Positions 4,315 through 64,000 of a stretch of DNA of 64,000 nt are shown here, one piece after another. Location: NCBI GenBank assembly GCA_036229005.1, contig JAZAMN010000011.1:64001-128000 (forward strand), written 5' to 3'. Position 1 is the stretch's first letter. Every line of letters starts with the position of its first letter. Below the pieces are notes generated by a model. The model ran no database searches, was not told the DNA's origin, and was given only the letters and a program-made list of their open reading frames with translations. Made by a program: the position numbers and the translations under genes. The DNA comes from Myxococcota bacterium (GTDB lineage: Bacteria > Myxococcota_A > UBA796 > CAJQPC01).

Positions 4315-4869
4315 ATGGCGCGCATGGCTGTGTTTGTCCTGCTGGCCGCCGGGAGCTCGGCCCGAATGGGTCGCCCAAAGGCCCTGCTCCCCCACCCCGC
4401 CGGCGCGCCGATGGCCCGGGTGTGGCTGGATCGCGCGAGAGCGGCCGGGCTCCACAAGCGGGTGGTCGTGGGGGGCGCGGATCCCCAGGCGCTGCGGGCT
4501 CTGCTTGAGGAGGAGGAGCTCTGGGTCCACAACCCGCAGTGGTCCACCACCAAGATGCGGGAGTCCCTGATGCTCGCCGCCGAGCTCTGCCCCGGCGAGG
4601 ACATGCTGTTCACGCCCGTGGACGTGCCGCCGTGCAGCGTTCAGGCCCTCGGTGACCTCGCCGGCACCCAGGGGGCCGCGGTGTTGGGGCACCACGGGGC
4701 GCCAGGACATCCGGCCCGGATCCCGGGGGGCCGGGATCTGGCCTCCTTCCCCACCCTCAGACCGCACCTAAAGGGGGCCCATGTGGTCGAGGGCGGGCCC
4801 GACTGCCTGCTGAACCTGAACCACCCGGCCGACTACGCGGCCTGGTTCACTCGCGCAGCCAGAGGGTGA
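4315..4869 (+). CDS. MobA/MocA-like nucleotidyltransferase family protein
   Basis: LLAAGSSARMGRPKALL, PVDVP and NLNHPADY motifs. Confidence 0.85.
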   Translation: MARMAVFVLLAAGSSARMGRPKALLPHPAGAPMARVWLDRARAAGLHKRVVVGGADPQALRALLEEEELWVHNPQWSTTKMRESLMLAAELCPGEDMLFTPVDVPPCSVQALGDLAGTQGAAVLGHHGAPGHPARIPGGRDLASFPTLRPHLKGAHVVEGGPDCLLNLNHPADYAAWFTRAARG

Positions 4870-5314
4870 CGGTGGACTCGGCGATCGCGGTGTCGCCGTC
4901 GATGTCGGTGGCCTCGACCACCAAGCGGGCCTCCTGGCCGACCAGGGCCTCCAGGTCTTGGGCCTCCTGGTAGTCGGGGTGGTCGATGGGGGTCGCGGTG
5001 CCCCACATCAGGCCGGAGCCGTCCTCCTGGCAGTAGACGAGCATGTCCTCGTAGAGGTACTCGCCGATCACCTCTCCGCCGACCTCGGTGCGCATGTCCA
5101 GGTCCACGAAGTTGTTGGCGACCAGCCCCAGGCTGCGGGCGCGGAAGGTCACGCCAAAGCCACCCTGGGGCGGGGTGATGATCTCGACCTCCTGCCCGTC
5201 CTCGAATGGGGTGAACTCGGTGCCCGAGCCCTCCCCCAGCTCCATCGAGCTGGCTCCCCGGCCAGCGCAGAGCTGCTCCGGCGTCCAACATGCGACCAGC
5301 AAAGTCCAGATCAT
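4847..5314 (-). CDS. Hypothetical lipoprotein (very short signal MIWTLLVAC)
   Basis: ORF with typical codon usage, GAGG RBS and lipobox LVAC. Confidence 0.75.
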   Translation of the reverse strand: MIWTLLVACWTPEQLCAGRGASSMELGEGSGTEFTPFEDGQEVEIITPPQGGFGVTFRARSLGLVANNFVDLDMRTEVGGEVIGEYLYEDMLVYCQEDGSGLMWGTATPIDHPDYQEAQDLEALVGQEARLVVEATDIDGDTAIAESTVTLWLRE

Positions 5315-5392
5315 CGCGTCCTCAGGCTGCCCTGCCCCAGACCCTACCCGGGTGGGGGCGGAGCCGCGAGGGGCGATGGGGGACCAATGCGC

Positions 5393-6241
5393 TCAGCCGC
5401 TGACCTGGGCCTTGACCCACGCCTGCATCTCCTCGCGGGGCATGTGCGAGGAGCGCTTCTGCTGGCTGGAGTCGAAGGAGTAGACGCTGGAGGGGCAGTC
5501 CTCGTTCTTGGAGGGGAAGGTCTTCTCGGCGAGCACCTTGCCGCTGCGCCGCCCGAAGACCTGGACCTTGGCGTCCTGGACCTGGAGGATCACGGGGCTG
5601 GTGGGGTTGCCGGCCTCGTCGACGTAGCCGTCGCAGGTGATCTCCTTGACGGTCACGCGCTGAACGAAGGCCAGAGCGTCGAGCTCGCCGATGGTCTGGG
5701 CCATCCCCAGCACCACCTCGTCGTAGCCGTTGTCGTAGTAGATGGCCTTGATCTGCTCGGGGTCGGCGTTGGTCTCGCCGTGAAAGAGGACGGGACCCCG
5801 CTTCGCGGCCTCCACCAGGTCCTCGCCGGGGAAGTAGACGGTCTGGTCGGGCACCGGGACGCTGAAGGCCTGCCCGCCCGGAGGGGTCACCTGGAGGGTC
5901 AGGCCGCCGAGAGTGCCGGTGTTCCAGGAGCTCTCGTTGGGAGCGGGCAGCTTGATGCTGTTGAAGTACGCGAACGCGGAGACGTCGGCCTTCATGCGGC
6001 CCTCGGCGTCCGCGCTGACCGTGGTGTCGCCGACCAGGAGCTCGGTCCCGGGGGGGAAACCGAAGAAGTAGACGCTGAGCTCTCCGTCGCTGAGGCTGAC
6101 GCTGCCGCGCATCTCGTCCTCCCCCTGGACCTCGAAGCGATCGTCGGACCAGACGAAGGCCTCGGGGCCGGTGAGGAACTGAGCGCGCTCCTGCAGGGGG
6201 GTGCTGCATGCGGTGAAGGTGGCGAGGGCGAGTAGGCTCAT
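5393..6241 (-). CDS. Hypothetical lipoprotein
   Basis: MSLLALATFTAC lipobox, AGGAG RBS, typical codon usage. Confidence 0.75.
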   Translation of the reverse strand: MSLLALATFTACSTPLQERAQFLTGPEAFVWSDDRFEVQGEDEMRGSVSLSDGELSVYFFGFPPGTELLVGDTTVSADAEGRMKADVSAFAYFNSIKLPAPNESSWNTGTLGGLTLQVTPPGGQAFSVPVPDQTVYFPGEDLVEAAKRGPVLFHGETNADPEQIKAIYYDNGYDEVVLGMAQTIGELDALAFVQRVTVKEITCDGYVDEAGNPTSPVILQVQDAKVQVFGRRSGKVLAEKTFPSKNEDCPSSVYSFDSSQQKRSSHMPREEMQAWVKAQVSG

Positions 6242-6406
6242 CGGGGGACTCCTGGGGGTGCGGCGTCTAACGAGTCCTGGGCGGGACGCTTACAGGAGAT
6301 TTGGGGCCGGGCGTCAGGTCTGGCGCGTGTCTGTCTTGGTGCCAAGCCGTAGCGAGAACCCCGACCCCGGGTGGTAGAAAGGGGGCCACTTCTCCCGGAG
6401 AGACCC

Positions 6407-9400
6407 ATGACCTCCCTGTTGATCCACCTGGCCCTGGTCGGCACCGCCTCGGCGGCAGACCTGACCATCGACGGCACGACCCAGACCCTGGACGGCACCC
6501 AGAGCTACGACAACATCTACGTGATCAACGGCGGCAGCCTGGTGGTCACGGACTACGATGGGACGGGCACCACCGGCACGGTCACCCTGGTCGCCGAGAC
6601 CGTCACCGTGGACAGCACCTCCTCCATCGTCGCCTCGGGGGCCGGCTACCGCGGCGTCACCAATGCCCAGGGCGAAGGCACCGGCGGCGGCACCGGCGGC
6701 AGCGCATTCCCGGACTCCGGCGGCGGCGGCGCCCACGGTGGTGACGGCGGCGACGGCGTCCAGGACGACAACCTGACGGCCGACGGACAGGGCGGCACCG
6801 CGTACGGTGACAGCAGCTCCTTGAGCGTGGACATGGGCTCGGCGGGCGGCTCCGCGGGCGGCGGCGACGGCGACACGGGCGGCGCTGGCGGCAATGGCGG
6901 CGGCTCCATCACCATCCAGGCCGACACCGTGACCATCGCCGGCACGATCATCACCAACGGCGACGACGGCGCGATCTACAACAACGACGCAGCGGGCGGC
7001 GGCGCCGGCGGTGGCGTGTTCATCCAGGCCGACACCCTGAGCTGCACCGGCACCATCACGGCTGCGGGCGGCGACGGCGGCGATATTGATGACAACGGCG
7101 GCGGCGGCGGCGGCGGCGTGGTCAAGCAGTTCTACGACACCAGCGGCACCACCTGCACCGTGGACGTGAGCGGCGGCACCGGCCCCGGGCGGGCCAGCGA
7201 CGGCTCCACGGGCATCGACTCCAGCGGCACCGTGGACTACGACGGCGACGGCTACACCGTGGCCGACGGCGACTGCGACCCCACCGACAGCAGCGTCAAC
7301 CCCGGCGCCACCGAGGTCTGGTACGACGGCGTGGACCAGGACTGCGACGGCGGCTCCGACTACGACCAGGACGGCGACGGCGAGGACTCCGACGCCTACG
7401 GCGGCGACGACTGCGACGACACCGACGCGGCCATCAACACCTCCGCGACCGAGATCGACGGCAACACCGTGGACGAGGACTGCGACGACGTCCTGGGCGG
7501 CTACGACTCCGACGGGGACGGCCTGGACGACGACGACGAGGTCTACGTCTACGGCACGGATCCCTTCGACGCGGACACCGACGGCGAGGGCCTGACCGAC
7601 GGCGAAGAGGTGCTGACCTACGGCACCGACCCCCTGGACAAGAACAGCGACGACGACGGCCTGAACGACTACCGTGAGGTGGTCACCGAGGGCACGGATC
7701 CCAACGACGCCGACTCCGACGACGACGGCCTGACCGACGGCGAGGAGGTCAAGAAGCACGGCACCGACCCCAACGACGACGACACCGACGGTGACAGCCT
7801 CAGCGACGGCGAAGAGGTCAACACCTACGGCACCGATCCCCTGCTCGCCGACACGGACGGGGATGGGCTGGATGATGATGACGAGCTCCTCGTCTACACC
7901 ACCGATCCTCTGGATGCGGACACGGACGGAGAGGGCCTGGATGATGGGGACGAGGTCAACGTACACGGGACCGACCCCCTCCTCGCCGACACCGACTCCG
8001 ACGGCTGCGACGACGCCACCGAGGTGGCCGCCGGCTCCGATCCCCTGCTGACCGACACCGACGGCGACGGGGTGGACGACTGCAGCGAGATCAGCGACGG
8101 CACCGACCCCACCGACTCCGACTCCGACGGCGACGGCCTGAGCGACGGCGAAGAGGACACCCTGGGCACCGACCCCACGGACTCCGACACCGACAACGAC
8201 GGCCTGAGCGACGGCGAGGAGGTCAACACCACCGGGACCGACCCCGTGGACGCCGACTCCGACGACGACGGCCTGGACGACGGCGAGGAGGTCAACACCC
8301 ACGGCACCGATCCCAACGTCGCCGACACCGACGGTGACGGCCTGAGCGACGGCGACGAGGTCGACTCCCACGGCACCGATCCCAACGACGCTGACACCGA
8401 CGGCGACGGCCTGGACGACGGCGACGAGGTCAACACCCACGGCACCGACCCCACCAGCGCCGACAGCGACAGCGACGGCCTGGACGACGGCGAGGAGGTC
8501 AACACCTACGGGACCGACCCCAACCTGGCCGACACCGACGGCGGCGGCGTGGGCGACGGCGCCGAGGTCACCGCGGGCACCGATCCCCTGGACGCCAGCG
8601 ACGACGTGGCCAGCGACGACAGCGACGGTGATGGCCTGAGCGACGACGAAGAGGCCGCGCTGGGCACGGATCCCCTGGACCCCGACAGCGACGGCGACGG
8701 CCTGGAGGACGGCGACGAGGTCTACACCCACGGCACCGATCCCAGCGACGCGGACACCGACAACGACGGCCTGGACGACGGCGAGGAGGTCCTCAGCGAG
8801 GGCACCGATCCGCTGGACGCCGACACCGACGGTGACGGGCTCGAGGACGGCGAGGAGGTCGACTCCTACGGCACCGACCCCCTGGACGCCGACACCGACG
8901 GCGACGGCCTGGACGACGCCGAGGAGGTCGACACCTACGGCACCGATCCCCTGGACGACGACAGCGACGACGACGGCCTGGGCGACGGCGAGGAGGCCCT
9001 GACCACCGACACGGATCCCCTCTCGGCGGACACCGACGGCGACGGCCTGGACGACGGCGAGGAGGTCAACACCTACGGCACAGACCCCAAGGACGAGGAC
9101 ACCGACAACGGCGGCGTCTCCGACGGCGTGGAGGTGCTGGTCGACGGCACGGACCCCCTGGATCCCAGCGACGACGTGGCCGATGACGGGACCGATACCG
9201 ACGGTGACGGCCTCACCGACGTGGAGGAGGAGGCTCTGGGCACCGACCCCGGCAGCGCGGACAGCGACGGCGATGGCCTGAGCGACGGCGACGAGGTCGA
9301 CATCCACGGCACCGATCCCAACCGCGGCGACACCGACGGCGACGGCCTGAGCGACGGCGACGAGGTCAACACCCACGGCACCGATCCCCTCTCCGCCGAC

Positions 9401-10147
9401 AGCGACGGCGACGGCCTGGACGACGGCACCGAGGTCAACGACACCGGCACCGACCCCCTGGACCAGGACAGCGACGATGACGGCCTGACGGACGCCACCG
9501 AGGTGAACACCTACGGCACCGATCCCAACGACGCCGACAGCGACGACGACCTGCTGGAGGACGGCCGCGAGACCTTCGAGGTGGGCACGGATCCCCTGGA
9601 CTTCGACACCGACGACGGCGGCCGCGGCGACGGCGCCGAGGTGGACCAGGACGGGACCGATCCCTTCGATCCCTCCGACGACGTGAGCGATCGCGACGGC
9701 GACGGCGTCTCCGACTACGACGAGGAGAACACCTACGGCACCGACCCCGACAACGCCGACAGCGACGGGGATGGGCTCAGTGATGGCGACGAGATCTTCG
9801 TCCACACCACCGACCCTCTGGATAGCGACTCCGACGACGACGGCCTGAGTGACGGCGACGAGGTCAACGTCCACGGGACCGACCCGGGCGACAGCGACAC
9901 CGACGACGGCGGCGTCTCCGACGGCGACGAGGTCGACAACGGCACCGACCCGCTGGATGGCAGCGACGACGTCCCCGACACCAACACCCCCGACGACACC
10001 GGTGATACCGGAGAGGACGACCTGAACGGCCTCTACGCCGGCGGCGGCGGCGCGGGCTGCAGCAGCACTGGCGGGAGCGCTGGCGGCCTGCTGGGTGCCC
10101 TGGGCCTGCTGCTGGGCATGACCCTGCTGCGGCGCCGCCGGGACTGA
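6407..10147 (+). CDS. Large surface protein: Gly-rich N-domain, two MopE-type metal-binding motifs, long array of bacterial TSP3-like Ca-binding repeats, MYXO-CTERM-like tail
   Basis: Signal MTSLLIHLALVGTASA. Repeats D(T/S)DGDGLxDGEEVxxxGTDPxxA. C-terminus GCSSTGGSAGGLLGALGLLLGMTLLRRRRD. Confidence 0.9.
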   Translation: MTSLLIHLALVGTASAADLTIDGTTQTLDGTQSYDNIYVINGGSLVVTDYDGTGTTGTVTLVAETVTVDSTSSIVASGAGYRGVTNAQGEGTGGGTGGSAFPDSGGGGAHGGDGGDGVQDDNLTADGQGGTAYGDSSSLSVDMGSAGGSAGGGDGDTGGAGGNGGGSITIQADTVTIAGTIITNGDDGAIYNNDAAGGGAGGGVFIQADTLSCTGTITAAGGDGGDIDDNGGGGGGGVVKQFYDTSGTTCTVDVSGGTGPGRASDGSTGIDSSGTVDYDGDGYTVADGDCDPTDSSVNPGATEVWYDGVDQDCDGGSDYDQDGDGEDSDAYGGDDCDDTDAAINTSATEIDGNTVDEDCDDVLGGYDSDGDGLDDDDEVYVYGTDPFDADTDGEGLTDGEEVLTYGTDPLDKNSDDDGLNDYREVVTEGTDPNDADSDDDGLTDGEEVKKHGTDPNDDDTDGDSLSDGEEVNTYGTDPLLADTDGDGLDDDDELLVYTTDPLDADTDGEGLDDGDEVNVHGTDPLLADTDSDGCDDATEVAAGSDPLLTDTDGDGVDDCSEISDGTDPTDSDSDGDGLSDGEEDTLGTDPTDSDTDNDGLSDGEEVNTTGTDPVDADSDDDGLDDGEEVNTHGTDPNVADTDGDGLSDGDEVDSHGTDPNDADTDGDGLDDGDEVNTHGTDPTSADSDSDGLDDGEEVNTYGTDPNLADTDGGGVGDGAEVTAGTDPLDASDDVASDDSDGDGLSDDEEAALGTDPLDPDSDGDGLEDGDEVYTHGTDPSDADTDNDGLDDGEEVLSEGTDPLDADTDGDGLEDGEEVDSYGTDPLDADTDGDGLDDAEEVDTYGTDPLDDDSDDDGLGDGEEALTTDTDPLSADTDGDGLDDGEEVNTYGTDPKDEDTDNGGVSDGVEVLVDGTDPLDPSDDVADDGTDTDGDGLTDVEEEALGTDPGSADSDGDGLSDGDEVDIHGTDPNRGDTDGDGLSDGDEVNTHGTDPLSADSDGDGLDDGTEVNDTGTDPLDQDSDDDGLTDATEVNTYGTDPNDADSDDDLLEDGRETFEVGTDPLDFDTDDGGRGDGAEVDQDGTDPFDPSDDVSDRDGDGVSDYDEENTYGTDPDNADSDGDGLSDGDEIFVHTTDPLDSDSDDDGLSDGDEVNVHGTDPGDSDTDDGGVSDGDEVDNGTDPLDGSDDVPDTNTPDDTGDTGEDDLNGLYAGGGGAGCSSTGGSAGGLLGALGLLLGMTLLRRRRD
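7500..9970 (+). repeat. Coding tandem repeats (~23 aa / ~69 bp units, roughly 35 copies estimated from length)
   Basis: Recurrent gacaccgacggcgacggcctgagcgacggcgaggag...ggcaccgatccc units, in frame. Confidence 0.9.
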
Positions 10148-10544: not shown

Positions 10545-10554
10545 GCTGAAGAAG

Positions 10555-10584: not shown

Positions 10585-10587
10585 GGA

Positions 10588-12854: not shown

Positions 12855-13961
12855 ATGAAGCGCCGCGATCTGCTGACCCTGGGACTGGCCGCTGGCGCGC
12901 TCACCGCCTGCGAGGGGCCTCAGCCCCGTCAGCGTCCTCAAGGCGAGGTGGGGACGGCGTTCACCGGGCAGCGCGTGGTGTGGCGTCTGGCCAGCTCCTT
13001 CCCTCGGAGCCTGGACACGCTCTATGGCGCCTGCGAGGTGCTGGCGGAGCGTGTGTTCGCCATGTCCGATGGCCTCTTCGAGATCCGCCCCTACCCCGCC
13101 GGCGAGCTGGTCCCCGGCCTGCAGGTCCTGGACGCCGTGGGTGGCGGGACGGTGCAGTGCGGGCAGTCCGCCAGCTACTACTACATCGGCAAGAACCCGG
13201 CGCTGGCCTTTGACGCCTGCGTGCCCTTTGGCATGACGGCCCGCCAGAAGATGGCCTGGCTGCTGGAGGGCGGCGGCCAGGAGCTGATGGCCCCGCTGTT
13301 CGCGGACTTCGGGGTGCGGAGCTTCTCGTCGGGCAACACGGGCGTGCAGATGGGCGGCTGGTTCAAAGAGCCGCTCACCGGGCTGGCCGACCTGTCCGGC
13401 CTCAAGATGCGCATCCCCGGCATGGGCGGCAAGGTGATGGCCAGCCTGGGGGTGAGCGTACAGAACATCGCCGGGGGCGAGATCTTCACCGCCCTGGAGC
13501 GGCGAGCCATCGACGCCACGGAGTGGGTCGGCCCCTACGACGACGAGAAGCTGGGCTTCTACAAGGCCGCCAAGCACTACCAGTACCCGGGCTGGTGGGA
13601 GCCGGGGCCCAACCTCAGCTTCTACGTGGGAGAGGCCGCCTGGAGCAGCCTGCCGGCCGCCTACAAGGAGATCTTCCAGAGCGCCGCGCTGGAGGCGTCG
13701 ATGCGCATGCAGGCCCGCTACGACATGCGCAACCCGCCCGCGCTCAAGCGTCTTCTGGCCGAGGGCGTGCAGATGTCCCCCTTCCCCGACGACGTCATGG
13801 CGGCTGCCCGCGAGGCCTCGATCCAGCTCCTGGAGGACAGCGCCGCGGCCGATCCGGGCTACCGCAAGGTCTACGAGCACTGGAAGGGCGCGCAGACCGA
13901 GCTGTTCCAGTGGTTCGGGGCCAGCGAGCTGGCGTATGCGCGCTTTGCCTTTGGGGGCTGA
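12855..13961 (+). CDS. dctP: TRAP transporter substrate-binding protein (TakP/keto-acid type DctP), Tat lipoprotein-like signal
   Basis: MKRRDLL twin-Arg. WRLASSFPRSLDT, GNTGVQMGGWF, LKMRIPG, DATEWVGPYDD and YPGWWEPG motifs. Confidence 0.92.
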   Translation: MKRRDLLTLGLAAGALTACEGPQPRQRPQGEVGTAFTGQRVVWRLASSFPRSLDTLYGACEVLAERVFAMSDGLFEIRPYPAGELVPGLQVLDAVGGGTVQCGQSASYYYIGKNPALAFDACVPFGMTARQKMAWLLEGGGQELMAPLFADFGVRSFSSGNTGVQMGGWFKEPLTGLADLSGLKMRIPGMGGKVMASLGVSVQNIAGGEIFTALERRAIDATEWVGPYDDEKLGFYKAAKHYQYPGWWEPGPNLSFYVGEAAWSSLPAAYKEIFQSAALEASMRMQARYDMRNPPALKRLLAEGVQMSPFPDDVMAAAREASIQLLEDSAAADPGYRKVYEHWKGAQTELFQWFGASELAYARFAFGG

Positions 13962-13994: not shown

Positions 13995-14345
13995 ATGCTC
14001 GCACTCATCCTGACCCTGGCCTGCAGCACCCAGACCACGCCCACCGCCCAGGCCGGGAGCCCCTGCATGTATGAGGCCTCCAGCAAGACCTACAAGACCT
14101 GCAACCACGCCTCCATGGGCAAGTGCCACAGCTACGGGTCCACCTGCGAGCCCGAGTGCATGTTCGAGGCCTCCAGCGGTCTGCACAAGCAGTGCGCCCA
14201 CGCGTCGATGGGCCAGTGCCACCACTACACCAGCACCTGCGAGCCCGACTGCATGTACGACCCCAGCGACGGGGTCTACAAGGAGTGCGCGCACAAGAGC
14301 ATGGGCAAGTGCCACCACTACACCGGGACGTGTGAGCCGGCGTAG
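13995..14345 (+). CDS. Small lipoprotein of three 31-aa Cys/His/Met-rich repeats
   Basis: AGGAGG RBS, MLALILTLAC lipobox, 93-bp repeat units starting at 14064, 14157 and 14250. Confidence 0.85.
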   Translation: MLALILTLACSTQTTPTAQAGSPCMYEASSKTYKTCNHASMGKCHSYGSTCEPECMFEASSGLHKQCAHASMGQCHHYTSTCEPDCMYDPSDGVYKECAHKSMGKCHHYTGTCEPA

Positions 14346-18086: not shown

Positions 18087-18156
18087 GGGCGCATTGTGCC
18101 AGAGCGGGTGTGCTCGGGCGGCGCCAGAGCCGCGCGTTCCCTGGTACGGTCCTTTC

Positions 18157-18996
18157 ATGCTCGCCTTGGTTCCCCTGCTCCTGTCCTGCGCTGGCCCCGG
18201 CGACGAGCTCGCCGCCATCCGGGTCGTCTCCGCGGATCTCGACGGGATCGTCCTCAAGTCCGCGGCCGTCGTGGGGGGCGGTGTCGGCGGCCGGGCGACC
18301 CTGAACGTGTGGGACGCCCAGGGGCGGGTCCACAGCTTTCCGGTCCTCATCAAAGGCAGCACCGTCGGCGCCGTGGTCGAGGTCGATCGCGCCATGGACC
18401 TGGGCCGCTACTCCGCCATGCGCCTGCCCGATGAACCCCTGACCGGCGATCAGCTCCTGGGCCGCTACAGGGGCCCCTCCGTCGGGGTGGTGGTCGGCGC
18501 CGGGGTCACCACCTGGGACCTGGAGAACCGGCACGGCGTGGAGCTGGACAAGGAGTTCCTGACCCTGGGCGTCGCTGTCTTCGCGGGCGTGGAGTGGGTG
18601 CACTTGAGCCTCGGGGGGCCCGGGGGGCAGGTAGAGGACCTGGGCAGCTCGGAGTTCCCTCCATACGACTCCGGGCTCGACACCGCCGACACCGCCGACA
18701 CAGCCCCTGACTCAGGCGAGGACACCGGTCCCCTGACCTGGGACAGCAGCGTGCCGCCCCCTCCCCCGGGAGCGCCGATAGGCTGTGCGGTCCGCTCCGA
18801 TCAACAGCCGCAGACAAGCGACGACCCTGAGCCCGGCGACACGGGCTTCAGCGACGCCGGGGGCTCGAGCACAGACTGCGGCGGGGGCTGTCAGTCCGAC
18901 AGCGACGGCGCCTGCGACTCAAGCTGTGATGGCAGCAGCGCCTGGCTGATGGGCCTGCTGGTGATGGTCGGGTGGCGCCGCCGCCGCGCGGCCTGA
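18157..18996 (+). CDS. Hypothetical lipoprotein with beta-rich domain (EipA/DUF1134-like, tentative) and MYXO-CTERM-like tail
   Basis: MLALVPLLLSC lipobox. C-terminus CDGSSAWLMGLLVMVGWRRRRAA. Confidence 0.7.
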   Translation: MLALVPLLLSCAGPGDELAAIRVVSADLDGIVLKSAAVVGGGVGGRATLNVWDAQGRVHSFPVLIKGSTVGAVVEVDRAMDLGRYSAMRLPDEPLTGDQLLGRYRGPSVGVVVGAGVTTWDLENRHGVELDKEFLTLGVAVFAGVEWVHLSLGGPGGQVEDLGSSEFPPYDSGLDTADTADTAPDSGEDTGPLTWDSSVPPPPPGAPIGCAVRSDQQPQTSDDPEPGDTGFSDAGGSSTDCGGGCQSDSDGACDSSCDGSSAWLMGLLVMVGWRRRRAA

Positions 18997-19008: not shown

Positions 19009-19755
19009 CTACTCCATCTCCTGCCGCACCAGGTCCAGGTTCTCCTGGATCGCCTCGGTGTAGCTGGACTCCGGGTAGAAGGTCACCAGCCCCACCAGCA
19101 GGGTCTCGACCTCGGCGAGCTGCTTGTCGCGGGCGTCCCCGGCGGGCAGCGCCCGGGCCTGCTTGAACATGTGACCGGCGCGCTCGCGCTCGCTGCGCAC
19201 GAAGCCGTCCACCGCCTCCTGCCACAACCCCTTGGTCACCGAGTCCCAGAGGGGTCCGTCCTGGTAGGGCTCCAGGGTGCTCATGGCGCCCGCATAGTCC
19301 CCAGCGGCCAGCTGCTCGCGGGCCTGGGCCTGAGCATCCCCAAGGGCCAGCGAGGGCTCCTGGCCCAGCGTGTCCTCGACGATGAGGTCCTCTTCGACGA
19401 TGTCCTGGGCGCCCCCAAGAGCTGACGGTAGGGACAGACCTTCGTCCAGCACCAGCTCCTCCCTCTGCTCGATCTCCAGCAGGGTCTGCAGGTAGCGCTC
19501 GGCGGCCAGATCCGGGTCCTGCCCGTCCCGCAGGGCCAAGGTGTAGCTGTGGGCGGCCTGGAGGCGGTCGACGCGGTCCTGGTCCTGCACGCCCCCCTCG
19601 TCCAACAGCGCGGCGAACTCGGCCTCGTAGGCGGCGTAGTCCACCTGGGTGCGGGCGGGCGCCTGCTGGGCGGCTTTCGCCTGCTCCGGCGTCACGGCGG
19701 GCTTGGGGGGGGCGCCATAGGGCTTGACCACGCAGGCCATCAGTAGAATCAACAT
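19009..19755 (-). CDS. Helical/TPR-like lipoprotein downstream of PBP1A
   Basis: GGAGG RBS, MLILLMAC, and YPESSY TPR-like C-terminal motif. Confidence 0.75.
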   Translation of the reverse strand: MLILLMACVVKPYGAPPKPAVTPEQAKAAQQAPARTQVDYAAYEAEFAALLDEGGVQDQDRVDRLQAAHSYTLALRDGQDPDLAAERYLQTLLEIEQREELVLDEGLSLPSALGGAQDIVEEDLIVEDTLGQEPSLALGDAQAQAREQLAAGDYAGAMSTLEPYQDGPLWDSVTKGLWQEAVDGFVRSERERAGHMFKQARALPAGDARDKQLAEVETLLVGLVTFYPESSYTEAIQENLDLVRQEME

Positions 19756-26132: not shown

Positions 26133-27181
26133 CCGCTGTCCCAGAAGCCCAGGGTGATCCAGTTCACGTTGGTGAACCCCGCGCCGTGATCCACCGCGAA
26201 CTCCAGCGCCAGATCCCGGGAGAAGGACCCCACCTCAAAGTGGTAGACGCGCAGCTCCAGCCCGCCCGTCGCGTGCCAGGTGCCGTCCAGCGTCCGCAGC
26301 CGCGCCGCCTCTCTCCAGGCCCCGCTGCGCACCCGCAGGCGCTCGTCGATCACCTCGAGCTCCAGGCCCCCCCGCGGAGACATCGTCACGGTGTCACCCG
26401 TCGCGATCCACTCGCTGGCGACCAACACGCCCTCCAGCGCCGCCGCGTCATCCACCGGGCCCTCGACCACCAGATCCAGCGCCACGCGCATCGGCCAGGG
26501 GCGCGGCCAGGGGGCGTCGTCCACCTTGGACACGCCGAAGCCGATCTCCCAGGGCGCCACGGCCGTCTCCGGGGCCCAGTCCACGTCCTGCCAGCGCCGG
26601 GCGATCACCCGACTGCGGAAGCTGGCCCCCACGTTCACCCCGCCGTCCAGGGTGGTGATCAGCGTGCCCATTTGGAAGCCCGCGCCGGCGTAGCTGACGT
26701 TGGGCAGGTCCGGGAGCCGGAGGGCGGCGTTGGCCAACCGCACACCCACCCCCACCGCGCCAAAGGGGAGCTGGGCCGCGCCCACCACGTGCCCCTCGCT
26801 GTAGATGAGGTCACCTTGGGGGCCGGCCTCCTGCAGTGTCGTGAACACCGCTCCGGTCCCGAAGCGCCCCAGGCGGCTGCCCACCCCCAGGTCCAACCGG
26901 GTCTCCACCAGGCCCTCGGTCAGCGGCCGATCCTCCTGGCCGGTCAACACCAGGGCGGAGCTCAGACTGAGCACCCCGGAGACGCCAAAGGGCCCGGGGT
27001 GGTTCGTGCGCTGCACGGCGGGGGCCGCGGGGTTGAAGAAGGTCCCCTTTGCGCCCCATGCCAGGCCGATCCCCGCGCTGCCCATGGCCATGGACTCCGC
27101 GGAGGTCACGGGCACCCGGCGGGCCAGCTCCAGTTGGAGCGGCTCCTGGGCGAAGGCGGTGGACAGAATCAGGTGCAGCAA
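26099..27181 (-). CDS. Outer-membrane beta-barrel protein (FadL/PorV-like N-terminal motif)
   Basis: Probable TTG start (MLHLILSTAFA-QE). SAESMAMGSAG...FFNPAA motif and amphipathic beta strands. The track start at 27334 would run through the tRNA. Confidence 0.65.
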   Translation of the reverse strand: MLHLILSTAFAQEPLQLELARRVPVTSAESMAMGSAGIGLAWGAKGTFFNPAAPAVQRTNHPGPFGVSGVLSLSSALVLTGQEDRPLTEGLVETRLDLGVGSRLGRFGTGAVFTTLQEAGPQGDLIYSEGHVVGAAQLPFGAVGVGVRLANAALRLPDLPNVSYAGAGFQMGTLITTLDGGVNVGASFRSRVIARRWQDVDWAPETAVAPWEIGFGVSKVDDAPWPRPWPMRVALDLVVEGPVDDAAALEGVLVASEWIATGDTVTMSPRGGLELEVIDERLRVRSGAWREAARLRTLDGTWHATGGLELRVYHFEVGSFSRDLALEFAVDHGAGFTNVNWITLGFWDSGQVEGARPFKP

Positions 27182-32040: not shown

Positions 32041-32957
32041 TCCCCCTGAGCACAACGCTGGCGCTGCTGCTGGGCTGCGAGATCACCCAGCTCGACTCCG
32101 CCTCCATCGTCGACCGCACCCGCATCCTGGGGGTCAAGGCCACCCCCGCCGAGCCCGCGCCCGGCGACACCGTCACCTTCTCCTCCCTGGCCGTGGACCC
32201 TGAGAGCGGCATCGCAGGCGTCACTTGGTTCGGCTGCGTGCTGGAGGACAGCGACTCCTTCGGCTGCGAGCTGGACACCGACACCCTGGAGGCGCTCTTC
32301 GCCCAGGACCCCACCACCATGACCGCCCAGGAGCAGCAGGACTGGTACGCCGAGCTCCAAGCCGCGGGCTTCCTGGGCATCGAGCCCGACCTCTCCCCCA
32401 CCCTCACCGTCCCCTCCGACCTGTTGGACGGCTTGAGCGAAGAGCAGCAGGCCGAGGGCAAGAACTACATGCTCACCCTCTCCGCCATCCCCGGCGGCCT
32501 GGAGATCGACGACCTGGATCTCGACGCCGAGGGCACCCAGGCGGTGGGCGAGCAGGGCCTCAAGCGCATGCCCGTGAGCGTCGGTGGCACCCCCAACCGC
32601 AACCCCGAGATCACCTCGCTGACCCTGGACGGTGAGTTTGACGTCAAGGACCAGGATGTCTTGGAGGTGAGGGCTGGGCAGACCTACACATTCCAGCTCA
32701 ACCTCTCCGACGACAGCGTGGAGACCTACACTTTCGTGGACTCCCAGGGCGCCAGCGAGGACAGGATGGAGCAGCCGTATGTCAGCTTCTACGCCACGAC
32801 TGGCTCCTTCTACCAGACCATCAGCCTCCACCCCTACCTGGAGGCGGAGTGGACCGCGCCCATCGATCCACCCGGCGAATCGCACACCCTGTGGTTCGTC
32901 CTGCGGGATCGCCGCGGCGGCATGGATTGGGTGACCGTGGAACTTCTGGTGCGCTGA
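32037..32957 (+). CDS. TBDR-associated lipoprotein
   Basis: GTG overlapping the TBDR stop. MIPLSTTLALLLGC, RILGVKATPAEPAPG, PNRNP and WFVLRDRRGGMDW. Confidence 0.8.
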   Translation: MIPLSTTLALLLGCEITQLDSASIVDRTRILGVKATPAEPAPGDTVTFSSLAVDPESGIAGVTWFGCVLEDSDSFGCELDTDTLEALFAQDPTTMTAQEQQDWYAELQAAGFLGIEPDLSPTLTVPSDLLDGLSEEQQAEGKNYMLTLSAIPGGLEIDDLDLDAEGTQAVGEQGLKRMPVSVGGTPNRNPEITSLTLDGEFDVKDQDVLEVRAGQTYTFQLNLSDDSVETYTFVDSQGASEDRMEQPYVSFYATTGSFYQTISLHPYLEAEWTAPIDPPGESHTLWFVLRDRRGGMDWVTVELLVR

Positions 32958-40005: not shown

Positions 40006-41523
40006 ATGCTGACCAAGCGCATCCCCCTCCTGCTCGGGCTGGCCTTCACCTTGGGCCTGTCCACCGGCTGCGGCGACAAGAACGACACCCCTGCCGTTGA
40101 CGAGACCACCGTCACCGACCCGGGCTACTTCTTCAACCGCGGCGTCACCACCCTCAAGAGCCCCGACTCCAAGACCGGTGACGTCAACTACCAGGCCGCC
40201 TACGACGACTTCGTCAAGGCAGCAAACCTCGATGCCGGCAACAAGGGTGTCCAGTACAACGCTGGATGGACCGCCGAGCAGATGGGTGACCTGAGCAAGG
40301 CTGAGACCCACTACCGCAAGGCACTCGAGCTCGACCCGACCTACGAGGCGGCCCTGAACAGCCTGGCCAAGATCCTGGCGGCTGACGGCCGTGACGCCGA
40401 GGCTGTGGACGCCTACACCGCGTACCTCGCTGCCAAGCCCGGCAACATCGACATGTGGAACGCCAAGGTCGACGCGCTGACCCGCGCCGGTCAGTACGAC
40501 GCCGCGATCGCCGAGGCTCAGGCCATCCTGCAGGCCTCCCCCGACAACGTGCCGGCGTACCGCAACCTCTCCCGCGCCTACCACGGCAAGGGCGAGCTCG
40601 GCATGAGCCAGCTCACCGCTGAGAAGGCCAAGTCCCTCAAGGAAGGCGACCCCGGCATCTACAACAACATGGGCGTGACCTACCTCCAGCAGGGAGACCA
40701 GACTGCGGCCATCGAGTCCTTCCAGACCGCGATCAAGGTCGATCCCGACAACGTCGAGGCGAACCTGAACCTCGGCTACATCGCGCTGGACTCCGGCGAC
40801 TACAACCTCGCGCTCGCCTGCTTCCAGGCGGCGACCGGGGCTGAGCCCAACAACGTCCCCGCGCTCCTCGGCCTCGCCGTCGCTCAGCGCGGAACCATGG
40901 ACTACGAGGGCGCCTCCGCCACCTACGACAAGGTCCTCAAGCTCGATCCCGAGAATGAGATCGCCTACTTCAACGCCGCGACCCTGCACGAGAAGTACAC
41001 CAAGGACTTCAAGAAGGCCAAGGCGCTGCTGCAGGCCTACGTGGACGTGAACCAGGGCAACATCGCCCCGAGCCACGAGGTCTTCGGTCGAATCGATGGC
41101 ATCGCCGCCGCCGAGGCCGAGGAGAAGGCTCGCCAGGAAGAGCTCAAGCGCCAGGAGCAGGAGCGCAAGGAGCGCGAGGAGCGCCAGAAGGCACAGCTCG
41201 TCAAGCTCCAGGAGCGGACCACCGCCTACATGGCCAAGGTGGATCAGGCCTCCTGCCCCGCCGTCATGGAGATGGGCATGGTCGAGGAGTTCGCGATGAT
41301 CGGCGAGCAGGCCCAGATGGTCATCGACGCTGGTGACTACGGGATGGCCGGAGACATGCTCACCTTCCTGGACTCCATGGAGCCCACCCTGGACGAGCTG
41401 ATCCCCATGTGCGGCGACGCAGGCTCCACGGAGCCCGCTCCTGCCGAGGGTGAGGCCACCGAAGCCGCTCCTGCAGAGGAGACCGCTGCTGAGCCCGCCG
41501 CGGAGGCCGCTCCCACCGAGTGA
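40006..41523 (+). CDS. gltE: TPR lipoprotein GltE (AglT)/NfsE-like
   Basis: MLTKRIPLLLGLAFTLGLSTGC lipobox, TPRs and cluster position. Confidence 0.82.
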   Translation: MLTKRIPLLLGLAFTLGLSTGCGDKNDTPAVDETTVTDPGYFFNRGVTTLKSPDSKTGDVNYQAAYDDFVKAANLDAGNKGVQYNAGWTAEQMGDLSKAETHYRKALELDPTYEAALNSLAKILAADGRDAEAVDAYTAYLAAKPGNIDMWNAKVDALTRAGQYDAAIAEAQAILQASPDNVPAYRNLSRAYHGKGELGMSQLTAEKAKSLKEGDPGIYNNMGVTYLQQGDQTAAIESFQTAIKVDPDNVEANLNLGYIALDSGDYNLALACFQAATGAEPNNVPALLGLAVAQRGTMDYEGASATYDKVLKLDPENEIAYFNAATLHEKYTKDFKKAKALLQAYVDVNQGNIAPSHEVFGRIDGIAAAEAEEKARQEELKRQEQERKEREERQKAQLVKLQERTTAYMAKVDQASCPAVMEMGMVEEFAMIGEQAQMVIDAGDYGMAGDMLTFLDSMEPTLDELIPMCGDAGSTEPAPAEGEATEAAPAEETAAEPAAEAAPTE

Positions 41524-46488: not shown

Positions 46489-48333
46489 TCAAATCCCCTC
46501 CCCCCGAAGCAGGAATGCCGTGTCCGAAACGGCAACCGCCCATACGAGCCAAGGGAGGCCACCATCCGCGGCTTCCATCGTGGTTACGCCGCCGTAGGGA
46601 TAACCTCCTCCCAATTCCACCACAGCATGGGGCTGGGACGGGAGAGCCCCGTGAAGCGGGTTGGCCCAAACCTCGACAGTCGGGTTTGTGCCATTGTCCC
46701 TGACACCACCGGCAACCAAATCCAGGTGGCTGTCCCCATCAACATTCCCAGCCTCAAGCCAGTAGACCCCGGTGAGCGAGTCTCCTTCGAGCAGCACGTC
46801 AGCATCCGAGGCATCGTAGTTGTTGAAGGTCTGTGGCCCCCCCAAGAACACGGCCACTTGGCCCACGAACTCGGAATCGTCGGCCTTGCTGGGTACACCG
46901 ACCGCAAAATCGTCGTAGCCATCCTCATCGAGGTCCGCCGCTACCCCGTTGGCTCCCAGCTGCCCCTCCGAGCTGCTGTCTGAAATCGATCCGTCAAAGT
47001 CTTGGACGGTTCGACTGCCGTTGAGCGAATCAGCGTAGAAGAAGTAGAACCGCTCCCCGTGAAGCGCGAGATCCGTTGCCCCATCTCCATCCCAGTCGGA
47101 GAAAACGGGCCGTCCAACATACATCCCAACCTTCACCCCGCTTGAATCGGTGATGACCACGTCCGCACTACCTGCGCCTGTGCCGCTGGTGGGAGCTACG
47201 TCCCAGAGATACACCGAAGCGGCCGAAAAGTCCTTTTCAAGCTGCGTGATCGCAAGACTCCCCTCATGTCCAACGACGCTCCATCCAAAGTACACGGAGT
47301 TTCGTTCCCTCTCAATCAGGACGTCTGCGCTGGCACCCAAGCCTGCGCTCCCCCCGAGAAAGAGCCTGACATACTCATTGGTCGCTCCGTACTCTGGCAC
47401 CAAGTTGGCGTTTCCAACGGCCAGGTCTTCGAAGCCATCGCCGTCCAAGTCTCCGGCCCAGAGTGACCCACCTACCTCATGGTAGTAGCCCTCCTCTGGC
47501 GTGTACTCCCAATCGGCACCGGCGGTCGACAAGACCGTCGTATCCCCTGGTTCGTCGAAGAGGTAGACGGCTCCCCTTCCATTGTCCGGTGCCCCAAGAA
47601 CTAGCGAGTCCGCCCCATCCCCATCAAAGTCACCTGCAGCCAGTCCCCAACCCAAGTGGAAGTTGGAACTGGATGAAACGACCACACCGGCATCACCAGC
47701 ACTCCACTCCCCCACCAACCCACACTCCGGCGCCCCCCCACTGCAGTCATTGTCGATGCCGTCCCCGCACACCTCCGTGCGGCCCGGGTTCGCCTGGGTC
47801 TGCTCGTCGTCGCAGTCCCCCGCTACCTGGACGTGCCCCACGGGCACATCACAAGCCTCGATCGCGCCGGCATCGTCGCCGTAGCCGTCTGAGTCGCCGT
47901 CCGGGTACCAGGTCAGGAACTCCAGCCCGTCGTCCTCGACGCCGTCACAGTCCTGATCGATGCCGTCGCAGACCTCCAGCTGACCGGGGTGGACCGAGGC
48001 GTTCCAGTCATCACAATCCTCTCCCTGCAGGACGTGCCCAGGCTCGAGCGCGCAGGAGTCGAAAGCCCCAGCGTCGTCGCCCCACCCGTCCCCGTCCTCG
48101 TCCGGGTACCAGGTCAGGAACTCCTGGCCCTCGTCCACGCTGCCGTCGCAGTCCTGGTCCACATCGTCGCAGTCCTCGCCCGCTCCGGGAAAGATCGCTG
48201 CGTCCTCGTCATCGCAGTCCGGACCGCCGAACTCCGCGGAGGGGAAGCCGTCCCCATCCATGTCCCGAGCCTGCTCGTACAGGTCGCGGTACTCCGCGGG
48301 ACTCGTCAGACACCCCACCAGCCAGATCCACAT
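46489..48333 (-). CDS. Lipoprotein with three MopE-type metal-binding repeats and an FG-GAP (integrin-alpha-like) propeller
   Basis: GAGGAGG RBS, MWIWLVGC. DCDD...PG..ExCDGIDQDCDG repeats. GDFDGDGADSLVLGAP and ADLDEDGYDDFAVGVP. Confidence 0.85.
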   Translation of the reverse strand: MWIWLVGCLTSPAEYRDLYEQARDMDGDGFPSAEFGGPDCDDEDAAIFPGAGEDCDDVDQDCDGSVDEGQEFLTWYPDEDGDGWGDDAGAFDSCALEPGHVLQGEDCDDWNASVHPGQLEVCDGIDQDCDGVEDDGLEFLTWYPDGDSDGYGDDAGAIEACDVPVGHVQVAGDCDDEQTQANPGRTEVCGDGIDNDCSGGAPECGLVGEWSAGDAGVVVSSSSNFHLGWGLAAGDFDGDGADSLVLGAPDNGRGAVYLFDEPGDTTVLSTAGADWEYTPEEGYYHEVGGSLWAGDLDGDGFEDLAVGNANLVPEYGATNEYVRLFLGGSAGLGASADVLIERERNSVYFGWSVVGHEGSLAITQLEKDFSAASVYLWDVAPTSGTGAGSADVVITDSSGVKVGMYVGRPVFSDWDGDGATDLALHGERFYFFYADSLNGSRTVQDFDGSISDSSSEGQLGANGVAADLDEDGYDDFAVGVPSKADDSEFVGQVAVFLGGPQTFNNYDASDADVLLEGDSLTGVYWLEAGNVDGDSHLDLVAGGVRDNGTNPTVEVWANPLHGALPSQPHAVVELGGGYPYGGVTTMEAADGGLPWLVWAVAVSDTAFLLRGEGI

Positions 48334-53305: not shown

Positions 53306-54331
53306 ATGAAGAAGACCTGGATCAAGGCCGCTGGTGTCAGCGCGGTCGCCCTCGCTGTCCTGGCCACCCCCACCTCGGAGACCCAGGCCCAGGCCCAGTA
53401 CACCCTGAACTTCGGCACCGTCGCGCCGGAAGGCACCCCCTGGGCTGACCAGCTCCAGTCCTTCCGCAAGCGCATCCAGGACGACTCCAACGGCGCCATC
53501 AAGGTCGTGGTCCACCACGGCACCATGGGCGGCGAGATCGAGATGAGCCGGGACTGCCGCCGCGGCGAGCGCCTCCAGGGCGTCGGCGTGTCCACTGGTG
53601 CCCTCTCCGAGGGTGCCGGCGTTCCTCTGCTCCAGCTCCCCGAGCTCCCCTACCTCTTCCGCAACGAGGCCGAGGCCGACGCCGTCCTGGACGAGGTCCT
53701 CTACGAGCCCGTCGCCAAGCAGCTCGACGCCAAGGGCTTCGTGTTCAACACCTGGGCCGAGAACGGCTGGCGCAACTTCGCCACCAAGGGCGGCCCCGCC
53801 ACCACCCCGGAGGAGCTCGCCAAGTTCAAGATGCGCTCCCAGGAGTCCATGGTCCACACGGGCATGTACAAGGCCCTCGGGACCCAGGCGGTCGCCCTCC
53901 CCACCTCCGAGGTGCTGCAGTCCCTGAACACCGGCGTGGTCACCGGCTTCGACAACACCCCGCTGTTCTCCCTGGCCGCCGGCTGGATCAACCCGGTGAC
54001 CCACTACACGCTGTCCCGGCACATCTACCAGCCCGCCGCCATCGTGTACTCCAAGCGCTTCATGGCCCGCCTGAGCCCGGACCTGCAGAAGGTCGTGGAG
54101 GGCGATCCCGCCAAGGAGGCGTCCATCGGCCGAAAGGCCGTGCGCGCCCAGGAAGGCGACATGCTCGCGGTCATCAAGACCAAGGGCATCGAGATCGTCG
54201 ACCTCAGCGACGCTCAGCGCCAGGCCTTCGCCGCAAAGACCCAGGGGGTCCACATGGACTTCGTGGCAGCGAACCCCGGCGTGAAGGGTGAGTACGAGAA
54301 GACCATGGCCAAGCTCAAGGCCATGCGCTGA
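53306..54331 (+). CDS. dctP: TRAP substrate-binding protein (TPAT P-component)
   Basis: [23 protein letters not shown] and [11 protein letters not shown]. Confidence 0.9.
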
Positions 54332-58300: not shown

Positions 58301-58301
58301 G

Positions 58302-58318
58302 CCCAAGCGAGGTCACCC
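58302..58318 (-). repeat. Dispersed 17-bp motif, copy 3
   Basis: CCCAAGCGAGGTCACCC on the + strand at the pyrE/yigZ junction. Confidence 0.8.
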
Positions 58319-58912: not shown

Positions 58913-58951
58913 GGCTCCCCAGTATCCCGCCGGAGCAGATAGGTTGTGGCC

Positions 58952-60343: not shown

Positions 60344-60359
60344 CCTGTGCGCCGCCGAC

Positions 60360-61970: not shown

Positions 61971-62019
61971 GGGATCTCCAGCGATCCTGATACCATGATC
62001 GACCGGAGACTGGACCCCG

Positions 62020-62607
62020 ATGCTGCTTCTGGCCTTGCTCAGCGCTGGTGACATCTTCATGCGGGTCGAAGAAGACGGCTCGCTGACCTTCACCGATGTC
62101 CCCGCCGAAGAAGAGAGCTTCACCCTGTTCCTTCGGGAGAAGCCCCTCCCCGCTCCGACTGCGGTCTCCCTCAAGACCTTCCCGCTGCTGGACACCTGGG
62201 ACGAGGACATCCTGGACGCCGCCAAGCGCTACGGGGTCGAGGCGGCCCTGATCAAGGCCGTCTGCGTGGCGGAATCGGGCATGAACCCCAACGCGGTCTC
62301 CCCCGCCGGCGCCCAGGGGCTGATGCAGCTCATGCCGGCGACCGCCACATCGCTGGCCGTCCTGGACGCCTTCGATCCCATCCAGAACATCGACGGAGGC
62401 ACCCGCTACCTCAAGCGGCAGCTCCGCCGCTTCGGCTCCAAGGAGCTCGCGCTGGCCGCGTACAACGCCGGGCCTCACAACGTCGAGAAGCACGGGGGCA
62501 TCCCTCCCTTCGAGGAGACCCAGCGCTACGTCCCCCGGGTCCTCTCGCTCTACGAGTTCTTCCGGGTGCAGCGCCCCGTGGTCGCGCCCGTTAGCCAAAC
62601 CGAGTGA
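62020..62607 (+). CDS. Soluble lytic transglycosylase (SLT domain) with short N-terminal DUF4124-like segment
   Basis: [30 protein letters not shown] and [12 protein letters not shown]. Confidence 0.9.
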
Positions 62608-63221
62608 GCCAGCCTCCCTTCTACCGTCGCCCCGGCTTCTGGAACCTCCCGAACGCCATCACCGTCGCCCGCATCTTCGCGGTGCCGTTGATGGTGTGGG
62701 TCCTCTGGGACGAGCCCGGCAGGATGGAGGCCATCCTGGCCTGCGGGATCTTCGTCACCGCCATGCTGACGGACGTCCTGGACGGCTACCTGGCGCGCAA
62801 GTGGAAGCTCGTGTCCGTCGCCGGGGCCTTCCTGGACCCCCTGGCCGACAAGCTCATGGTCGCGACCACCATGGTCATGATGGTGGCGCTGGACTGGCTC
62901 CCCGCCTGGATCGCCGCCCTCATCATCTGCCGCGAGTTGACCATCACCGCCCTGCGGACCGTCGCTCTTTCCGAGGGCCTCAAGCTCCCCGCGGACAGCC
63001 TCGGCAAGTTCAAGACCGCCTTCCAGAGCACCGCCCTGGGCTACCTGCTCTGGCACTACCCCACCGAGCTGTGGCCGGGCTTCACCGTCTCCGCCACCAG
63101 CGTCGGCTACATCCTGCTGCTGATCGCCGTCGCCTTCACCATCATCTCCGCGTTCAACTACCTGTGGAACTTCTTCAAGCACGCCGCGGAGAAGGAGCGG
63201 AGGGAGGGGCTGCGGCCCTGA
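62604..63221 (+). CDS. pgsA: CDP-diacylglycerol--glycerol-3-phosphate 3-phosphatidyltransferase
   Basis: NLPNAIT and DVLDGYLAR...[10 protein letters not shown]. Confidence 0.92.
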
Positions 63222-63335
63222 GGGGGACCCCACCCCAACTCGGTTGCGAGTGGAGCGGGCCAAGAACCCCCACCAGGAGGGCTTGATTCTCCCCAGTGTC
63301 TTTGCGCCTGCTATGGTCGGGGCAGAGGAGGGGAG

Positions 63336-64000
63336 ATGCTCACGCTGTTCATTGGATGCTTGGTTTCGCCAGGGGAATACGAACTACTGCTTGAGGACGC
63401 TCAGGACGCCGACGACGACGGCGACATCTCGGAGGTCTACGGTGGTGCCGACTGCGATGATGCTGATCACGCAATCCACAGCCGAGCCCAGGAACTTTGC
63501 GACCAGATCGACAACGACTGCGACGGTCTCATTGACGAGGGCATAGCCACCCAAGCCTGGTACCTCGATGCCGACCGCGATGGCTTTGGAGACTTGAGCA
63601 CAGCCGTGGACCGCTGCTCCGCCCCTGAGGACCATGTCCTGGAGCCTGGCGACTGCGACGACAGCGAGGATGATGTGAACCCTGATGCAGAAGAGATCTG
63701 CAACGACGGGATAGACAATGACTGCGACGGGGGAGCTCCCGAATGTGCATGGGGCGGGACCTATGACCTGGCCCTGGCTGACGCCGTGATCCGGAGCGAA
63801 TCAGGCCTCGACTACTTTGGACTCACGCTGGCTGTCGTCGACGCCAACGGAGATGGCACGGATGAAGTCGCCATCGGTGCCCCGTTCCGAGACAGCGACG
63901 AGTTCTCCGACGCTGGCGTTGTCTACCTCTTCTCCAACGTGACCGGCAGCCACTTCGCGCACGAAGAGGCAACTTGGCAGGTTCCAGGAACTGAGTCTGG
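63336..64000 (+). CDS. MopE-repeat/FG-GAP lipoprotein, paralog of 46489..48333 (truncated by window end)
   Basis: Read manually: GAGGAGG RBS, then MLTLFIGCLVSPGEY...DCDD...GIDNDCDGGAPEC...DANGDGTDEVAIGAP. No stop before 64000. Confidence 0.82.
   Translation, partial: MLTLFIGCLVSPGEYELLLEDAQDADDDGDISEVYGGADCDDADHAIHSRAQELCDQIDNDCDGLIDEGIATQAWYLDADRDGFGDLSTAVDRCSAPEDHVLEPGDCDDSEDDVNPDAEEICNDGIDNDCDGGAPECAWGGTYDLALADAVIRSESGLDYFGLTLAVVDANGDGTDEVAIGAPFRDSDEFSDAGVVYLFSNVTGSHFAHEEATWQVPGTES

Follow-up and report, generated by a model that had tools for sequence, protein, structure and literature searches.

Ultra-short, uncharged N-termini of predicted exported proteins in a Myxococcota genome as candidate minimal Sec signals

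The DNA analyzed here, called the window below, is a 64,000-nucleotide stretch of the genome of an uncultured Myxococcota bacterium (assembly GCA_036229005.1, contig JAZAMN010000011.1, positions 64,001 to 128,000). Many of its genes for putatively exported proteins begin with a Met followed by a few hydrophobic residues and no Lys or Arg (K/R), and end this short peptide either in a lipobox-type Cys or in a site like that of signal peptidase I (SPase I). A sequence-only reading of the window had listed eleven such ultra-short, uncharged N-termini. When they were re-translated from the window DNA, 11/11 were found at their sites. These and related features are given below by the positions of the N-terminal peptides (SD, Shine-Dalgarno sequence).

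19732-19755, minus strand: MLILLMAC, lipobox-type Cys at residue 8; SD AGGAGG; in-frame stop 3 codons upstream
48310-48333, minus strand: MWIWLVGC, Cys at residue 8, of a 614-amino-acid MopE/FG-GAP repeat protein; SD present, one alternative start upstream
63336-63359, plus strand: MLTLFIGC, Cys at residue 8, of a MopE/FG-GAP protein continuing past the window end; no upstream start
5288-5314, minus strand: MIWTLLVAC, Cys at residue 9; no upstream start
13995-14024, plus strand: MLALILTLAC, Cys at residue 10; SD AGGAGG; stop 11 codons upstream
18157-18189, plus strand: MLALVPLLLSC, Cys at residue 11; gene likely leaderless; upstream starts exist
18145-18150, plus strand: TACGGT, a -10-like box whose distance to the ATG at 18157 is exactly 6 nt, a leaderless signature
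6206-6241, minus strand: MSLLALATFTAC, Cys at residue 12; SD AGGAG; no upstream start
4232-4270, minus strand: MLASVLGAFALGC, uncharged, Cys at residue 13; SD present, one alternative start upstream
29419-29454, plus strand: MLLLLLSTLALA, 12-residue SPase I-like signal of a receptor with TonB_C and Plug domains; stop 1 codon upstream
27149-27181, minus strand: (M)LHLILSTAFA, SPase I-like signal of 11 residues; begins at TTG without an SD, with alternatives at -42 and -51; the least certain start
62020-62046, plus strand: MLLLALLSA, 9-residue signal of an SLT lytic transglycosylase; stop 7 codons upstream
6407-6454, plus strand: 16-residue uncharged SPase I-like signal of a 1246-amino-acid TSP3-repeat protein, absent from the earlier list
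32037-32078, plus strand: uncharged lipobox signal with Cys at residue 14, absent from the earlier list
40006-40071, plus strand: for contrast, canonical K/R signal MLTKRIP..., Cys at residue 22, on a TPR protein of a Glt-like cluster
53306-54331, plus strand: for contrast, a DctP solute-binding protein whose MKK signal is canonical

At seven of the eleven sites (5314, 6241, 13995, 19755, 29419, 62020 and 63336) no in-frame ATG, GTG or TTG lies between the Met and the upstream stop, which is 1-38 codons away. Public gene calls use the identical start for 8 of the 10 window proteins looked up, and one strain variant in them (P0007) starts at a later Met. The earlier view that SD sites or upstream stops pin several of these starts is borne out; 27181 is the weakest case. 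Where Pfam families could be assigned they point outside the cytoplasm, namely TonB_C/Plug (29419), SLT (62020) and MopE/FG-GAP repeats (48333 and 63336); Pfam gave no family for seven of the eleven cited proteins. The classical K/R-containing signals noted before on the Glt-like and DctP proteins are present. The exported-type 1246-residue protein (6407-10147, plus strand) carries 22 TSP3 repeat matches.

Genes of the source genome (G000) were called with a purpose-written caller, which uses a dicodon model and chooses starts by their SD, start codon and coding score, without any rule on signal peptides; it returned 5359 genes in 6.4 Mb of DNA with 70% GC. Tabulation of Cys position against n-region charge bore out a short uncharged class. 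Lipobox-like N-termini were found in 997 genes: the Cys lay at residues 5-12 in 631, with K/R in 3 of them, at residues 13-16 in 144 (K/R in 36), and at residues 17-40 in 222 (K/R in 205). Within the short class the Cys position peaks at residues 8-11, the residue at -2 is mostly Leu (428/631), and 549 of the 631 signals are distinct. Because the filter behind the 997 genes bars charge within the 7 residues preceding the Cys, the tabulation was rerun without the charge and -1 conditions. In 636 genes the first Cys then fell at 7-12, behind four or more hydrophobic residues; 615 of these genes were uncharged, 15 had K/R, and Ala, Gly or Ser stood at -1 in 610, compared with a 27% background. 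At -3, Leu was found in 396 and Val in 23 of the 636. When charge was left free except in the last five residues before the Cys, K/R occurred in 10/585 signals with Cys at 6-14, in 7/20 at 15, in 16/26 at 16 and in 101/112 at 17-30. The h-region of the short signals is uncharged and Leu-dominated, with a mean hydropathy of 2.1-2.9 at Cys 7-12; for the core the values were 2.5-2.9 at Cys 8-10 versus 1.1-1.4 at Cys 18-22. An ATG followed by 6-10 uncharged residues and [AGS]C matched 447 called starts, versus 3-40 when the Cys was swapped for Trp, His, Tyr, Met, Asn, Phe or Gln. The DNA pattern ATG(NTN)5GSNTGY matched the genome 59 times: 52 of these matches coincide with called starts, 6 lie upstream of a called start in its frame, and 1 is out of frame.

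A Cys-free counterpart was also observed. A loose filter, used without a shuffled control and including some membrane proteins, returned 354 uncharged signals without Cys, 135 of which have an AxA end by residue 15. Among proteins picked by domain, 5 of 10 TonB receptors begin without K/R (3 are canonical and 2 could not be assigned), as do 12 of 21 OmpA-domain proteins (7 have K/R and 2 are MotB-like). The short class has no Arg for a twin-arginine motif, and a Tat-like motif occurs in 12 other genes of G000. The window gene 12855-13961 (plus strand) codes for a lipoprotein, MKRRDLL... with Cys at residue 19, possibly a Tat lipoprotein within the canonical class.

A helix of 7-10 residues cannot span the bilayer. 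With so few residues, the short peptide might stay uncleaved as a small N-terminal anchor, lipidated or not and perhaps inserted by YidC. The composition of the signals argues otherwise: Leu at -3 and Ala, Gly or Ser at -1 fit the Lgt/LspA site, the AxA ends of part of the Cys-free signals would fit cleavage, and TonB receptors have to leave the inner membrane. We consider the anchor very unlikely.

If the real starts lay upstream and restored basic n-regions, the short class would be an annotation artefact. Some points do weigh on that side: 135/631 short genes have, at most 25 codons upstream, a possible start whose use would bring in K/R, single cases such as 27181 are uncertain, and all genome-wide starts depend on a caller that missed the window genes 5314 and 48333. 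However, such upstream starts are no commoner than in the long class (67/222). No in-frame upstream ATG, GTG or TTG is available for 326 of the 631 short genes, and for 185 none of the seven possible start codons is. An SD is present in 63% of the short genes, with a spacing that peaks at 5-7 nt as in other genes. Among 219 SD-less short genes, 61 have the box TANNNT 5-8 nt before the Met, versus 0.08% of 28293 internal ATGs, and in 551 of 628 short-signal genes the start is backed by an SD, by a leaderless box or by the absence of any start upstream. We conclude that the artefact reading, which is hardly credible, fails, and that the short uncharged signals sit at true starts; the suspicion that upstream starts restore basic n-regions is largely refuted.

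The short-signal trait is restricted to the order of the source genome but is patchy within it. The Cys8 pattern reached at least 10 matches in 11 of 44 order genomes and in 0 of 257 genomes outside, where the maximum was 7. With the Cys8 and Cys10 patterns together, 28 of the 44 order genomes reach 1.7 per Mb and 10 lie below 1.0, compared with at most 1.65 per Mb in the 26 outside genomes tested. The trait is far more frequent in G000 than outside the order. Signal types of relatives were counted by gene calling on 80-200 kb samples. Short uncharged lipoproteins made up 14/29 in G217, 7/15 in G267, 8/21 in G152 and 5/12 in G020, but 4/20 in G056 and only 1/24 in G172, 0/15 in G132, 0/8 in G067 and 1/18 in G117, members of the order whose signals are almost all canonical. 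Since several members keep canonical signals, a trait common to the whole order was rejected; on a quick SecY tree it requires 4 changes. Samples of class outgroups had 1/11, 0/1 and 1/4. Two public records titled Deltaproteobacteria bacterium carry the pattern, with 18 and 33 matches. In the sample of G240, a genome from outside the class, 4/12 lipoproteins were short and uncharged, with weak starts; the genome (G240:C1) combines a high excess of leaderless-type boxes with the top outside density of short patterns (1.65/Mb), possibly an independent weak onset.

Short signals of G000 have canonical counterparts in homologues from G172, G056, G132, G067 and G287. In one pair with a matching Cys, MNLARFLLLVGVLTVGC of G172 corresponds to MIWLLLLAC of G000 (E 1e-163). 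Such pairing is frequent among the best matches between the samples of relatives and G000; in other matches both genomes have the long form, and in a few it is the relative that has the short form and G000 the long one. Within G000, 198 of 979 lipoproteins belong to 58 paralogue families; both signal lengths occur at the same Cys in 10 families, and in three close paralogue pairs the SD was retained and residues were lost in place. Two causes of the short forms were rejected: paralogue expansion, as only 198/979 lipoproteins belong to families, and, as the main cause, a start moved onto an internal Met, as these three pairs kept the SD and lost residues in place. Codon optimisation is slightly lower in short-signal than in long-signal lipoproteins (p=0.001; medians -0.142 and -0.129). 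K/R signals are kept by the window's Glt-like genes, whose codon score is high.

The source genome encodes one SecA and one SecY (one match each, in a genome that is 94% complete) and one YidC, together with SPase I, Ffh, FtsY, two deformylases and, above the cut-off, one Lnt. It also has two LspA, four Lgt and five S26-peptidase loci. These additional copies, the sharply bimodal signal classes and the Asn that many trait-rich genomes have at position 242 of Lgt might indicate a dedicated second route, with a special Lgt, LspA or SPase paralogue or an unknown targeting factor. Paralogue numbers are, however, equal in genomes without the trait, with 2-7 copies of Lgt and 1-2 of LspA in 11 same-class genomes outside the order, and a trait-specific Lgt/LspA duplication was rejected on this ground. 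The trait-rich G217 and G242 have one LspA each (94% and 86% complete), and a second SecA, SecY or YidC is absent from G000. The Lgt change Val242Asn, beside a conserved Glu, was rejected as a trait marker, being present in trait-poor G067 and missing in trait-positive G097, G152 and G182. Short and long signals moreover share families and intergrade. On the genes compared here, which fell short of a screen of whole gene content across genomes, the second export code or dedicated route proposed earlier is not supported, and we regard it as highly improbable.

Several observations were made on these genes. In G000:C8:64187-75636 the gene order is lspA, membrane-protein gene, lspA, lgt, with short-signal lipoprotein genes on both sides, and tandem pairs of lspA or of lgt occur repeatedly in the class. 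The LspA-linked Lgt at L003:1495-2361 has Tyr at the position of the proposed catalytic His103 of E. coli, as do class outgroups. Ffh (G000:C6:63141-64652) has a long Gly/Met/Pro tail with a basic end, which is class-wide but not present in G024.

The machinery comparison covered SecY, SecA, Ffh, LspA and Lgt. The SecY residue equivalent to E. coli Ile187 is Ala or Ser in 32/32 order genomes aligned (41 had a match) and in 0/51 other genomes, which have I, M or V, with T in 2. The same 32 SecY sequences carry T168S/A, and F192 is mostly Thr. I187 is a residue of the pore ring (isoleucine ring) of SecY (PMC2171872), and pore-ring substitutions often give super-active SecY, the effect of I187M being modest (log2FC 0.47; PMC13537251). 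Several facts weigh against a part for this change: Ala/Ser187 is also found in nine trait-poor order genomes aligned, it is present in the near-canonical members G172, G132, G067 and G117, and I187A/S is not among the I187 entries retrieved from the supplement of PMC13537251. Because several order members that carry it keep canonical signals, the substitution is permissive at most. Comparison of trait-rich with trait-poor genomes gave four weak columns in SecY, none convincing (22 versus 9), only weak or C-terminal columns in SecA (18 versus 9) and Ffh (13 versus 7), and a single gappy column in LspA. Loss of SRP, the signal recognition particle, was rejected, with Ffh/FtsY-family matches in 49/49 genomes and Ffh above the cut-off in 45. 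Of the earlier suggestion that the Sec/SRP/Lgt/Lsp pathway is modified, by paralogs or by substitutions, the SecY pore-ring change remains, although it is shared with canonical-signal members; a trait-specific duplication of Lgt or LspA was rejected, and no column of SecA, Ffh, Lgt or LspA follows the trait cleanly.

A box TANNNT stands 6 or 7 nt before the start of 287 of 2151 SD-less genes of G000. In about 360 genes, likely a leaderless class, an extended -10 box rich in G precedes the start by 5-8 nt; window examples lie at 18145-18157 and upstream of 12741 (minus strand), and other families of the phylum (G240, G150, G061) have a similar leaderless excess. A look for RNA evidence covered four runs, as contigs only, with a best share of 0.07. 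Among first-in-unit genes, 44/357 with short signals, 1/172 with long signals and 213/2756 others are leaderless, so that the contrast reflects avoidance by long signals as much as enrichment in short ones. The leaderless excess per genome, taken as the box count at gap 6 minus that at gap 9, correlates with short-signal density within the order (Spearman rho 0.69, n=44 genomes). With thresholds set after seeing the data, the trait is found in 24/25 order genomes with an excess of at least 12 per Mb and in 7/19 below. The link is weakened by the 63% of short genes that have an SD and by phylogenetic contrasts on a SecY+SecA tree of 32 genomes, which gave r=0.34 (p=0.06) with branch lengths; with equal branches r was 0.51 (p=0.003). 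Both inside G000 and among genomes of the order, the evidence that the trait co-varies with leaderless transcription is suggestive but not settled.

These data bear on another explanation, in which the signals are real but would be accepted by any ordinary translocon, the SecY change is incidental, and the trait spread alongside leaderless transcription through drift or economy at the 5' end. The within-order correlation and the first-in-unit counts agree with it, as do the failure of SecY Ala/Ser187 to follow trait strength within the order and the case of G240. Outside the order there was, however, no correlation (n=26, rho 0.02), and the leaderless-rich G150, G007 and G061 have only 0.2-0.4 short patterns per Mb. 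An order-specific factor therefore seems to be needed, and we judge this explanation unlikely, though less so than the anchor or the dedicated route.

We favour a reading that rests on features taken directly from the sequence, that is, the starts and the lipobox, an n-region lost relative to homologues, the single SecA, SecY and YidC, and the change of SecY Ile187 to Ala or Ser. The Leu-rich, uncharged N-termini of 7-14 residues with a lipobox Cys or an AxA end are probably minimal signals on a single ordinary Sec route, and the proteins are likely lipidated and cut by the usual Lgt and LspA, or cut by SPase I. The very hydrophobic core would be bound by SRP or SecA, and the smaller pore-ring residue of SecY might relax signal proofreading, permitting the trait without being its cause. 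The uncharged peptide, perhaps keeping its N-formyl group, could then sink into the bilayer until the cleavage site meets the enzymes on the periplasmic side. A charged N-terminus would stay cytoplasmic, so that about 15 residues would be needed for the cleavage site to reach the outer face; sinking of the uncharged peptide would explain why K/R appears only from Cys 15-16 onward. Deformylation is reported to be inhibited by SRP binding (PMC9099147), and such a block would leave the peptide without any charge. Removal of the charge at position 2 did not stop export of two E. coli reporters (PMC2034453). On the other side, according to reviews, export is slower when the n-region is neutral, and there is a minimum length for the h-region (PMC5875014). 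The short forms may have arisen by gene-by-gene erosion of normal signals, more so in leaderless or less codon-optimised genes, with conserved high-use proteins keeping full signals; the small size of the codon-bias difference, and its lack of significance in the SPase I class (p=0.15), tell against this last step.

More tentatively, the short peptides could form a third topology class of Sec signal, n-less, possibly formyl-capped, 7-14 residues long and buried whole in the membrane. It would comprise 760-980 proteins (14-18% of genes) and would have spread where a natural prl-like SecY meets leaderless transcription. This is possible rather than probable; if true, the genomes would amount to a natural experiment, at the scale of a proteome, on how small a signal can be and how SecY proofreads it.

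Among the neighbouring genes of the window, rplC (ribosomal protein L3; 48572-49213, plus strand) stands alone after the Glt-like cluster, and in the S10 operon (G000:C11:160124-160473) rpsJ is directly followed by rplD. In 6 of 8 L3-centred loci checked (L007-L011 and L043), neither rplD nor rpsJ is near.

If the short N-termini act as export tags, which is likely, the accepted minimum for a bacterial signal peptide would be overturned. The minimal needs of a signal peptide and the role of n-region charge have so far been studied mostly via single mutants. The trait supplies natural test pairs, with hundreds of sequences, homologues in both forms, a sharp charge-length threshold, and genomes with and without it; 8-residue export tags may also find use in protein engineering. 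Rule-based predictors, following the PROSITE lipoprotein rule, demand K/R and a Cys after residue 15, and would miss most lipoproteins of trait genomes. The training labels of SignalP 6 demand an n-region of at least 2 residues (bioRxiv 2021.06.09.447770). A literature search, with subscription papers and bioRxiv supplements outside it, returned no description of a short uncharged signal trait, and the available part of a secretome survey covering Myxococcota metagenome-assembled genomes (PMC11495043) does not mention it.

Several known systems invite comparison. The signals of the accessory Sec system (SecA2/SecY2) are long, not short. What the trait has in common with that system is the notion that a class of substrates carries a signal type of its own (PMC5076819), but a second SecA or SecY is missing here. 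Like prlA and other super-active SecY variants of E. coli (PMC2171872; PMC13537251), the SecY of the order has a small residue in place of a pore-ring Ile. It differs from them in being natural and fixed across the order, in affecting position 187 together with T168S/A and mostly F192T, and in occurring also where signals are canonical. Tripartite Sec/SPase I signals (PMC5875014) resemble the Cys-free short signals in having a hydrophobic core, followed by AxA in part of the loosely filtered set, and in standing on TonB receptors, OmpA-domain proteins and a lytic transglycosylase. The short ones, however, have 9-15 residues, no charged n-region and nearly no c-region. Canonical Sec/SPase II signals of the E. 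coli Lpp type have 16-26 residues and the lipobox [LV][ASTVI][GAS]C (PMC8689077, PMC9360617). The short signals share with them the uncharged hydrophobic core, Leu at -3, Ala, Gly or Ser at -1, Cys at +1, a Pro/acid-rich tether, a Cys that matches that of full-signal homologues, and encoded Lgt, LspA and Lnt. They depart from them in lacking the n-region and K/R (3/631; 15/636 without the charge filter), in having 6-11 residues before a Cys that peaks at 8-11, about half the usual length, in a -2 residue that is most often Leu rather than Ala, Ser, Thr, Val or Ile, and in their abundance, the short form being present in ~12% of the genes of G000. Because two defining features, charge and length, fail, the short signals are set apart from canonical signals of both Sec/SPase II and Sec/SPase I. 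To judge from their sequences, they likely work like Sec/SPase II or SPase I signals, minus charge and length.

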